Below the pieces are notes generated by a model. The model searched no databases and was not told the DNA's origin. It worked only from the letters and a program-made list of their open reading frames with translations. The translations under genes and the position numbers were made by a program. DNA of 64,000 nt from a virus (taxonomy: Duplodnaviria; Caudoviricetes). Shown here piece by piece: positions 51,814 through 53,777 of the stretch. Position 1 is the stretch's first letter; each line of letters opens with the position of its first letter. The stretch is from the IMG/VR virus record IMGVR_UViG_3300046171_000271; one strand, written 5' to 3'.

Positions 51814-51957
51814 ATGCAAACTACTGTCACCTTAAATGATACTCAATGGGATATAATCCTAGAAGCAGTAGAAGATTATGCTGTGTTGGTAAGTGAAGAT
51901 GTATCAGATAAATGTGGTGAGATTCTAGACATTATAGAGGCAGAAAGAACCAATTAG
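51814..51957 (+). CDS. 47 aa acidic hypothetical protein
   Basis: LNDTQWDIILEAVEDYA; weakly like the 53055 ORF. Confidence 0.5.
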   Translation: MQTTVTLNDTQWDIILEAVEDYAVLVSEDVSDKCGEILDIIEAERTN

Positions 51958-51984
51958 ACTAATACCTAGGATGTTTATGTTTAT

Positions 51985-52020
51985 GGGTAAAATGTAAGTA
52001 ATTCTACTTATGTTTTACCC
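51985..52020 (+). other. 16-bp stem-loop
   Basis: GGGTAAAATGTAAGTA-ATTC-TACTTATGTTTTACCC, fully paired with two G-U on + strand. Confidence 0.75.
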
Positions 52021-52153
52021 TAAAATGTATTAAAAAACGTTTTAAAATGCCTTTATAAATATACCTCGCTATTTTATCTTATTGAGAGTTATTCTCTGGA
52101 TACTACCCATTAATACCCTTTTAAATGTGCTGAGTCTTGTGATCTTGGCGTCC

Positions 52154-52182
52154 ATTCTATCAGCAACTCCCAGAAAAGTCAA
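52154..52182 (-). promoter_or_regulatory. minus-strand sigma70-type promoter
   Basis: TTGACT-17-TAGAAT. Confidence 0.65.
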
Positions 52183-52258
52183 CACCCCTCGATATAATTT
52201 TCCCAGCGTCAGTGTTTGCTAATTTCTGAGATTTGTGCCTATAAATATGTTCGGCGCG

Positions 52259-52287
52259 TTGACAATAATACTCCGATAGATTAGACT
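52259..52287 (+). promoter_or_regulatory. sigma70-type promoter
   Basis: TTGACA-17-TAGACT upstream of 52317. Confidence 0.7.
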
Positions 52288-52316
52288 CTAAAAGCATCAC
52301 CAACTGGAGCAGATTC

Positions 52317-52493
52317 ATGTCGGTTTCTTACAACCAATCACAGAAGCAACGTTACAGAATCACCCTGGATATAGAGGTGTACGATGACTTCAATCCCCAT
52401 CAAATTGACTTCGAGGAGTTATTTGGAATGGAAGGAACCGAGCGGGTTGTTGATAGTTACGTAGAGGATTTAAGTAACCCTATCAGTTGGTGA
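52317..52493 (+). CDS. 58 aa hypothetical protein (not in ORF track)
   Basis: MSVSYNQSQKQRYRITLDIEVYDDFNPHQIDFEELF. Confidence 0.65.
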   Translation: MSVSYNQSQKQRYRITLDIEVYDDFNPHQIDFEELFGMEGTERVVDSYVEDLSNPISW

Positions 52494-52533: not shown

Positions 52534-52591
52534 TGTGCCAGTCTTATTTGCGGCACACGATATAAGCACGGGGGTGTAGATGCCTTATATT
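52534..52591 (+). promoter_or_regulatory. early promoter element copy 10
   Basis: TGTGCCA-N10-CGGCACA; TATATT at 52586. Confidence 0.75.
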
Positions 52592-53491: not shown

Positions 53492-53777
53492 GTGTTGCTA
53501 ACCGTGGGGACAGTAAGTGTTACATAGTCCCCACACCAGTTCTTTACACAACCAACGAAATGTGCTAATCTATTACTAATTCAAACTCAATCGTCTATCT
53601 ATTACTAATGCTTACTCCAGTTACTATTACTAACACACAGTGAGTTTCTATTAGTAATAACGAAAAAGTATGATTGCAGGATATTCGTGTTAGGCAGTTA
53701 TTTTATTTGTGGTTAATTATAATAAGCGAAGCGATGCCCCCCGTTATAAAAACGCCTAACTACCCTAACCTACAGAG

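Follow-up and report, generated by a model that had tools for sequence, protein, structure and literature searches.

What purpose is served by a gene-free stretch of 350 bases that carries divergent promoters, one of them pointing against all the surrounding genes? The question arises at 51960-52310 of a 64,000-nt piece of viral DNA (IMG/VR record IMGVR_UViG_3300046171_000271), referred to here as the window, which BLAST places in a Synechococcus T4-like myovirus of the Kyanoviridae. Its nearest isolates, S-SM2 and Bellamy, share ~70-77% nucleotide identity across common genes, and none is close. A preliminary description had placed a minus-strand promoter in an otherwise all-plus region, converging on a late promoter at 52054. 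The gene layout agrees with this picture: between 5.8 and 64 kb, all ORFs of at least 150 aa that are not nested within a longer plus-strand ORF lie on the plus strand. The gene-free stretch, termed the hub, sits where a block of small accessory genes ends. An upstream 59-aa gene has its stop 28 nt before a hairpin at 51985-52020, and 4 kb downstream of the hub are a baseplate wedge gene and a gene of the PHROG 'ferredoxin' family, whose S-SM2 counterpart carries the annotation purM. The features of the hub and its adjoining gene are as follows.

51985-52020, plus strand: hairpin of 16 bp with a 4-nt loop and two plus-strand G-U pairs (RNA fold)
52021-52066, no strand: AT-rich tract, 17% GC, holding the palindrome AAAAAACGTTTT and the first TATAAATA
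52054-52061, plus strand: late-promoter motif TATAAATA, first copy, pointing right and converging with the predicted leftward transcript
52079-52118, no strand: lineage cassette of 40 nt, in the place of the DnaA-box cluster of relatives
52122-52143, no strand: iteron-like unit TAAATGT-N10-GTGAT, abutting the predicted leftward start
52139-52182, minus strand: predicted leftward sigma-70-type promoter, with -35 TTGACT at 52182-52177, TG at 52162-52161 and -10 TAGAAT at 52159-52154
52191-52201: inter-promoter block, GATATAATTTT in the window and GATAAGTTTT as consensus in the information profile
52240-52247, plus strand: late-promoter motif TATAAATA, second copy, 11 nt ahead of the rightward -35
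52259-52287, plus strand: predicted rightward sigma-70-type promoter TTGACA-17-TAGACT, serving the 58-aa gene
52317-52493, plus strand: gene of a 58-aa acidic protein, phrog_12516 (E 1e-26), with a GGAG ribosome-binding site at 52306-52309

The preliminary description had already drawn attention to the hairpin, to two perfect late promoters and to two -35/-10 pairs (TTGACT-17-TAGAAT on the minus strand and TTGACA-17-TAGACT on the plus strand). All of them are present: the late promoters at 52054 and 52240 both read on the plus strand, the hairpin has the G-U pairs that favour the plus strand, and the promoter status of the two pairs rests on conservation. It is therefore conservation that has to be described first.

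The module consists of positions 52020-52316 together with the 58-aa gene and occurs once per genome; its carriers are 187 fetched loci and no fewer than nine Synechococcus myovirus isolates. By BLAST, the core (52121-52190) matches non-coding DNA of Bellamy, S-SM2, S-SCSM1 and S-8S55, and positions 52071-52129 match S-T4 as well; a 24-nt degenerate core pattern matched 105 IMG/VR stretches. To avoid the bias of a core-based search, a second set of loci was fetched through the 58-aa protein. The core is present in 64 of the 64 protein-fetched loci that have at least 215 nt of upstream DNA, 30 of which fit the strict core pattern and 34 of which are off by a few bases. An information profile of 59 distinct protein-found sequences resolves two sets of near-invariant blocks: the first comprises TTAAATGT, GTGATCT and the leftward -10 and -35; the second comprises GATAAGTTTT, TATCAG, TTATAAATA, the rightward -35 and -10, and the gene leader. 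Across these 59 sequences, the non-coding blocks of the hub are conserved to the same degree as the 58-aa gene itself.

Copy number was read from a core profile searched with nhmmer. The window yields a single match (52118-52203, E 3.5e-18), the 187 loci yield one match each over 1.1 Mb searched, and the nine isolates have one hub place per record. A genome contig search gave a single match, a mis-binned phage contig. NHGE01000016.1 (L111), labelled as a metagenome-assembled genome (MAG) of the Euryarchaeota archaeon TMED129, encodes a cyanophage 58-aa protein (66% identity) with a hub upstream; this contig belongs to a phage and was assigned to the archaeal MAG in error. From these comparisons we conclude that the hub is a predicted control region of T4-like cyanophages (Kyanoviridae), non-coding and single-copy, and nearly unchanged in well over a hundred related viruses.

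One feature of the metagenome data touches on the same region. Among the 80 contigs found through the 58-aa protein (L112-L191), 16 have less than 200 nt upstream of the gene, and seven of these 16 end at -169 to -180, at or a few bases from the left edge of the core. Metagenome assemblies seem commonly to break here, where the conserved hub borders a hypervariable flank.

A motif scan by itself would not single out the promoters of the hub. Across 8 kb it returns 30 sigma-70-like sites against 26.3 expected, which is not above chance, and both sites in the hub score 10/12; their significance thus comes from conservation. The leftward promoter of the window has a 17-nt spacer, a GC-rich discriminator and an invariant (A)GATCAC at 52145-52139, and the predicted transcript start lies at 52145-52147. 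This geometry is kept in 118 of 121 distinct sequences. Among the 118, the -35 is TTGACA in 107 and TTGACT in 11; the spacer, free in sequence, measures 17 nt in 106 and 18 nt in 12; TG stands at -15/-14 in every one; and the gap between the -10 and GATCAC is exactly 9 nt, again in 118 of 118. The -10 follows the form TAnnnT, with T1, A2 and T6 fixed and positions 3-5 varying (TAGACT, TAGAAT, TAGAGT, TAAACT and others). Such a pattern of variation, seen in 118 of 121 distinct relatives, is the one expected of a working promoter. Base pairing of the start region with the promoter spacer (GCGAG/CTCGC) was considered and discarded, as it is lost in variants such as GGCAG and GCCCG.

Two relatives add comparative evidence that the leftward promoter fires. 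S-8S55 and S-BM3 carry minus-strand genes ~100-170 nt behind it, a 2OG-Fe(II) oxygenase gene in the former and two small genes in the latter. The lineage of the window has no conserved ORF downstream of this promoter, so that its predicted product is a non-coding transcript starting near 52145-52147.

The right half of the hub is conserved in a similar manner. Across 138 distinct relatives, the rightward -35 is TTGACA in 123 and the spacer is 17 nt in 122, with TATACT, TATAAT, TAGACT and TATAGT as variants of the -10. The late-promoter motif NATAAATA is kept in 118 of the 138, standing 12 nt ahead of the rightward -35 in 110. Motifs of the form TATAAATA/NATAAATA correspond to the T4-type late promoter as defined for cyanomyoviruses (PMC2984593). 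The 64-kb window holds TATAAATA only twice, both times in the hub and on the plus strand, where shuffled sequences lead one to expect ~6; the looser ATAAATA occurs nine times on the plus and twice on the minus strand, mainly ahead of structural genes. At the first late-promoter site, (N)ATAAATAT is retained within the subfamily of the window, and 37 of 77 loci carry TTATAAAT in their left flank. Conservation had been named beforehand as a check on the description. More than 100 distinct relatives keep the two sigma-70-type promoters as well as the late promoter at 52240, and judged by these alignments all three are under strong purifying selection.

An early promoter placed beside a late one has been put forward as the layout of 'middle' genes in cyanomyoviruses, which have no MotA (PMC2984593). 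The rightward and late promoter pair of the hub would give the 58-aa gene both early and late expression. A homologue of this gene follows the core in 94 of 110 loci, mostly starting 176-180 nt after it. The 58-aa protein belongs to no Pfam family; its AF2 model is a strand-helix-strand arrangement (pLDDT 75) in which no DNA-binding fold is seen, and a fold search gave no PDB match at E <= 0.001. The protein does not vary with the type of cassette found to the left of the promoter, and is thus unlikely to be a specificity factor. Distant homologues (39-52% identity) occur in P-TIM68, S-CAM7 and S-B05 (L192, L193 and L194), within tight gene arrays that leave only 34-126 nt upstream and have no hub, which confines the linkage of gene and hub to one clade. 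Beyond the gene, at 52535-52560 and ahead of the next gene (52657), lies a palindrome TGTGCC-N12-GGCACA, a dyad of another type than the two -35/-10 promoters of the hub.

What, then, lies in the path of the leftward transcript? Reading leftward, the window presents the iteron-like unit, the 40-nt cassette, a conserved GCTATTTTATC block, the AT-rich tract and the hairpin. The information profile is near-invariant for TTAAATGT at the iteron-like unit. One full unit is present in the window, together with a 13-nt copy at 51909 and TAAAATGT fragments; relatives have one to five copies ~33 nt apart, and 69 of 112 left flanks have two or more copies of TWAATSY, against a background of 0.21 per 320 nt. 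The cassette consists of a palindrome GAGAGTTATTCTC (52084-52096) followed by GGATACTACCCATTAATACCC (52098-52118), which admits two readings, a pair of TAnTAYCC repeats at a distance of 10 nt or an inverted repeat with imperfections. It is almost invariant in 13 relatives, including Bellamy and S-T4, is found in 31 IMG/VR stretches, including an S-T4-like lineage with another core, and is more conserved than the adjoining gene.

The AT-rich tract at 52021-52066 is a candidate unwinding element. It lies 80-125 nt downstream of the predicted leftward start, with the cassette between, and is homologous to the ATTAAAAAAC/GGTTTTT...TATA tract of relatives that carry DnaA boxes. When the 40-100-nt stretches of the window are ranked by stability, it falls within the lowest 0.6-0.7% without being the lowest of all. 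The hairpin beyond it folds at -18.0 kcal/mol on the plus strand (z -7.6) and at -13.2 kcal/mol on the minus strand (z -4.2), where the two G-U pairs turn into A-C mismatches. Both sides of its helix change at 11 of the 16 pairs among 13 relatives. A U-tract is absent from it on either strand, and no minus-strand intrinsic terminator is found; the same position in DnaA-box relatives is occupied by a bidirectional rho-independent terminator (GGGG..CCCC-T-run).

The cassette is exchanged among relatives while the flanks stay conserved. Among 113 distinct left flanks, 49 have at least two perfect TGTGGWWAA boxes, ~30 have an AGTTACT-type cassette, 13 have the type of the window (with three close variants), ~10 have a TATCTGTGGRG type and a few have other repeats. 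A fifth type is found in IMGVR_UViG_3300017725_000648 (L015), where TGTAACACA occurs ~5 times, once as TGTTACACA, over ~130 nt and within 200 nt left of the core, in the place where DnaA boxes otherwise sit. The sequence TGTGGWWAA corresponds to the cyanobacterial DnaA box TTTTCCACA or to the general box TTATCCACA (PMC4674748). There are 102 perfect boxes in 93 left flanks of 400 nt versus 36 in 755 kb of background, an enrichment of ~58-fold. The boxes lie mostly in one orientation, ~22 nt apart and 40-140 nt from the core, and the DnaA-box cassettes of sister phages hold two to four perfect host-type boxes.

The window has no DnaA box between 51700 and 52600. Alignments with homologous flanks show that its hub is a DnaA-box-free member of the same family as the DnaA-box variants. 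When the DnaA-box flank of S-SM2 was compared with isolates by BLAST, only S-SM2 itself was returned, for which the low-complexity filter is probably responsible. In S-SM2 (GU071095 57841-58355; L002 1240-1754), three annotated 'hypothetical proteins' of 33-47 aa, SSM2_085, 086 and 087, overlie the DnaA-box cluster and inter-promoter region, and are probably over-annotations. A second repeat-bearing non-coding region occurs in the window 1.4 kb right of the hub, at 53560-53760: inside a gene-free gap, CTATTACTAA is present three times (53570, 53599 and 53624) with an inverted copy near 53651, followed by an AT-rich stretch and a C-run. The sole TGTGGWWAA of the 64-kb window, at 53708, falls in this gap.

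The S-T4 lineage is instructive, since it combines the cassette of the window with a minus-strand promoter of its own (TTGACA-17-TGnTATGAC), its own iterons (ATCTCGACTAGAT) and a distant homologue of the small gene. The layout is the same and the core is different, which indicates that the architecture outlives the core sequence. In S-T4 (L003 1640-1960) and in L195-L211, at least four ATCTCGACTAGAT-like iterons are interleaved with TATAAT boxes, and sit between the minus-strand promoter and the small-gene homologue. An unannotated Cys-rich ORF is also present in S-T4 (L003 1060-1313).

Taken together, a single copy, a strong promoter set against all genes, lineage-specific repeat or initiator sites and an AT-rich tract match a transcription-fired origin. 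We tentatively propose, with somewhat less than even confidence, that the hub is a replication-origin-like cis element that is fired or primed by the leftward transcript. Early in infection, host RNA polymerase would fire the leftward promoter, and the transcript would open the AT-rich tract, or form an R-loop in it, as at T4 oriF and oriG. The cassette would serve as docking site for an initiator or loader, which would be host DnaA in the DnaA-box variants and some other factor here, and the phage replisome would be loaded after docking and opening. The promoters at 52054 and 52240 would read in the opposite direction late in infection and oppose the leftward transcript. A broader proposal, which we hold more loosely, extends this to the Kyanoviridae: they may share one conserved origin, in which a fixed sigma-70 promoter, serving as primer or activator, and an AT-rich tract enclose an exchangeable cassette where the initiator docks. 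The cassette would provide host DnaA boxes in about half of the lineages and the site of another factor in this phage, Bellamy and the S-T4 lineage, and its specificity would be swapped by recombination.

Several observations count against an origin. The hub of the window lacks a DnaA box and has only one full iteron-like unit, the AT-rich tract is set back 80-125 nt from the start, the promoter drives ordinary genes in S-8S55 and S-BM3, and the distant homologues of the 58-aa gene in P-TIM68, S-CAM7 and S-B05 occur without a hub. The cumulative GC skew curve is flat around 52 kb and is uninformative. For cyanophage Syn9, the literature predicts a single theta origin (PMC2984593); beyond this prediction, our literature search found no mapped origin in T4-like cyanophages, and no paper linking cyanophages with DnaA boxes.

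The preliminary description had offered two readings, a small RNA or a primer-transcript origin. A non-coding transcript is indeed predicted, and the family-wide evidence (DnaA-box and repeat cassettes, AT-rich tract, single copy) favours the origin; a structured RNA and a relation to the cyanophage RNA CfrI find no such backing. The main rival, a regulatory RNA without a role in replication, is on balance unlikely. It would be a small early leftward RNA of ~100-170 nt. Its action in cis would combine transcriptional interference with an antisense effect on the leader of the late transcript begun at 52054; alternatively, its conserved 5' end AGAUCACAAG...ACAUUUAA would act in trans. Either way, it would set the timing of expression of the 58-aa gene and its neighbours. 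The promoter is conserved with no ORF after it, the first ~30 nt of the transcript are conserved, the transcript converges with the late promoter at 52054 over an overlap of ~80 nt, and cyanophages offer an antisense precedent in CfrI (PMC2984593). However, only about one relative in two has that late promoter. Past the first 30 nt, what is transcribed is a patchwork of exchanged cassettes, and in half of the relatives it holds phased DnaA boxes, which are DNA sites. The region left of the promoter therefore most likely acts at the level of DNA.

The two small hairpins predicted for the leftward transcript in the cassette reach only ~-3 kcal/mol and are invariant, and the covariation that had been suggested as a check is not seen in the predicted internal hairpins; being weak and invariant, these give no support to a structured RNA. 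An 8-bp cassette hairpin, formed on the minus strand only and with two G-U pairs, was rejected (-2.9 kcal/mol, z -0.6, invariant, and broken in GGATAGTATCC variants). An Rfam covariance-model search with E up to 10 gave three weak unrelated matches, all outside 51960-52310, and thus no family match for the RNA. The earlier length estimate of ~130-190 nt was a guess: the hairpin has no U-tract and the window no minus-strand intrinsic terminator, so that the 3' end is undefined. A relation to CfrI was likewise dropped, as neither an Rfam match nor the context of psbA and a homing-endonuclease gene is found in the neighbourhood. Coding readings fare no better, and the earlier statement that the stretch has no credible ORF holds, since the candidates are broken or lost in relatives. 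ORFs of 38-52 aa within the stretch are broken by indels of 1 nt and ~35 nt; a 46-aa plus-strand ORF (52082-52222), resembling a hydrophobic peptide, is also broken by indels; and a 13-codon minus-strand ORF after the promoter has its ATG changed to TTG, is frame-shifted in L166 and is interrupted by a stop in S-T4.

In another reading, which is improbable, the hub is a cluster of promoters that sits at a recombination joint and mainly controls the 58-aa gene; the repeats would be operators of transcription factors, and the leftward promoter a ready expression site for cargo genes, empty here and filled in S-8S55 and S-BM3. The minus-strand genes behind the promoter in these two phages fit such a joint, as do the fixed distance from core to gene and the hypervariable left flank, at which seven of 80 contigs end (-169 to -180 from the gene). 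An empty promoter, however, is not expected to be invariant in more than 100 distinct sequences, and the adjoining cassettes are conserved within lineages, that of the window exceeding the adjoining gene. Another DNA-level role of the repeat region, such as a partition-like site or one that titrates a host factor, would draw on the repeats and on the DnaA boxes of relatives, but is very improbable given that the copy in the window has no DnaA boxes, that neighbourhood annotation shows no partition genes near the hub, and that T4-like phages package by the headful without a fixed site.

Whichever of these roles applies, the hub is a short, single-copy target that can be aligned across genera and is carried by cultured phages (S-SM2, Bellamy, S-SCSM1 and SynMITS9220M01). 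Under the origin reading, the DnaA-box-free variant described here is of particular use. It shows which parts are constant, namely the promoter, the GATCAC start region, the TAAATGT unit and the AT tract, and which part, the cassette, is exchangeable. In this way, firing as a general mechanism can be told apart from recognition as a step specific to each lineage. Even without a role in replication, few non-coding elements of these abundant marine viruses would be as constrained as the hub, and the hub would account for a frequent break point of metagenome assembly.

Three known systems can be set beside the hub. CfrI is an antisense RNA of cyanophage S-PM2, transcribed opposite psbA and a homing-endonuclease gene (PMC2984593). 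It resembles the predicted hub transcript in being a non-coding minus-sense RNA of a T4-like cyanophage, and differs in its psbA/homing-endonuclease context, which is missing here, and in sequence, with no match of the hub to it or to Rfam.

Iteron/DnaA-box theta origins are those of phage P1 and of plasmids. The hub of the window is unlike them in having no DnaA box and one full iteron, and in that the adjacent 58-aa protein has no DNA-binding fold and stays constant despite changes in the repeats. The hub family is like them in its direct repeats by a promoter and an AT-rich tract, in the DnaA boxes of sister variants and in the small gene adjacent. The direct repeats also recall T4 oriE, which has evenly spaced 12-nt iterons (PMC3016281).

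The third comparison is with T4 oriF (uvsY) and oriG, which consist of a promoter and a downstream unwinding element, with an R-loop as primer (Kreuzer and Brister 2010, PMC3016281). T4 has several unrelated origins, whereas the hub, a candidate origin, is one copy per genome. The T4 promoters are MotA-dependent middle promoters inside genes, and the hub, free of genes, has a simple sigma-70 promoter of the extended -10 kind; the T4 unwinding element follows the promoter directly, and in the hub the repeat and cassette sites stand between the promoter and the AT tract. What the two have in common is a T4-like phage, a promoter for host polymerase and an A+T-rich stretch downstream of it, and, in the mechanism proposed for the hub, a transcript that would open the duplex and prime leading-strand synthesis as it does at oriF and oriG.
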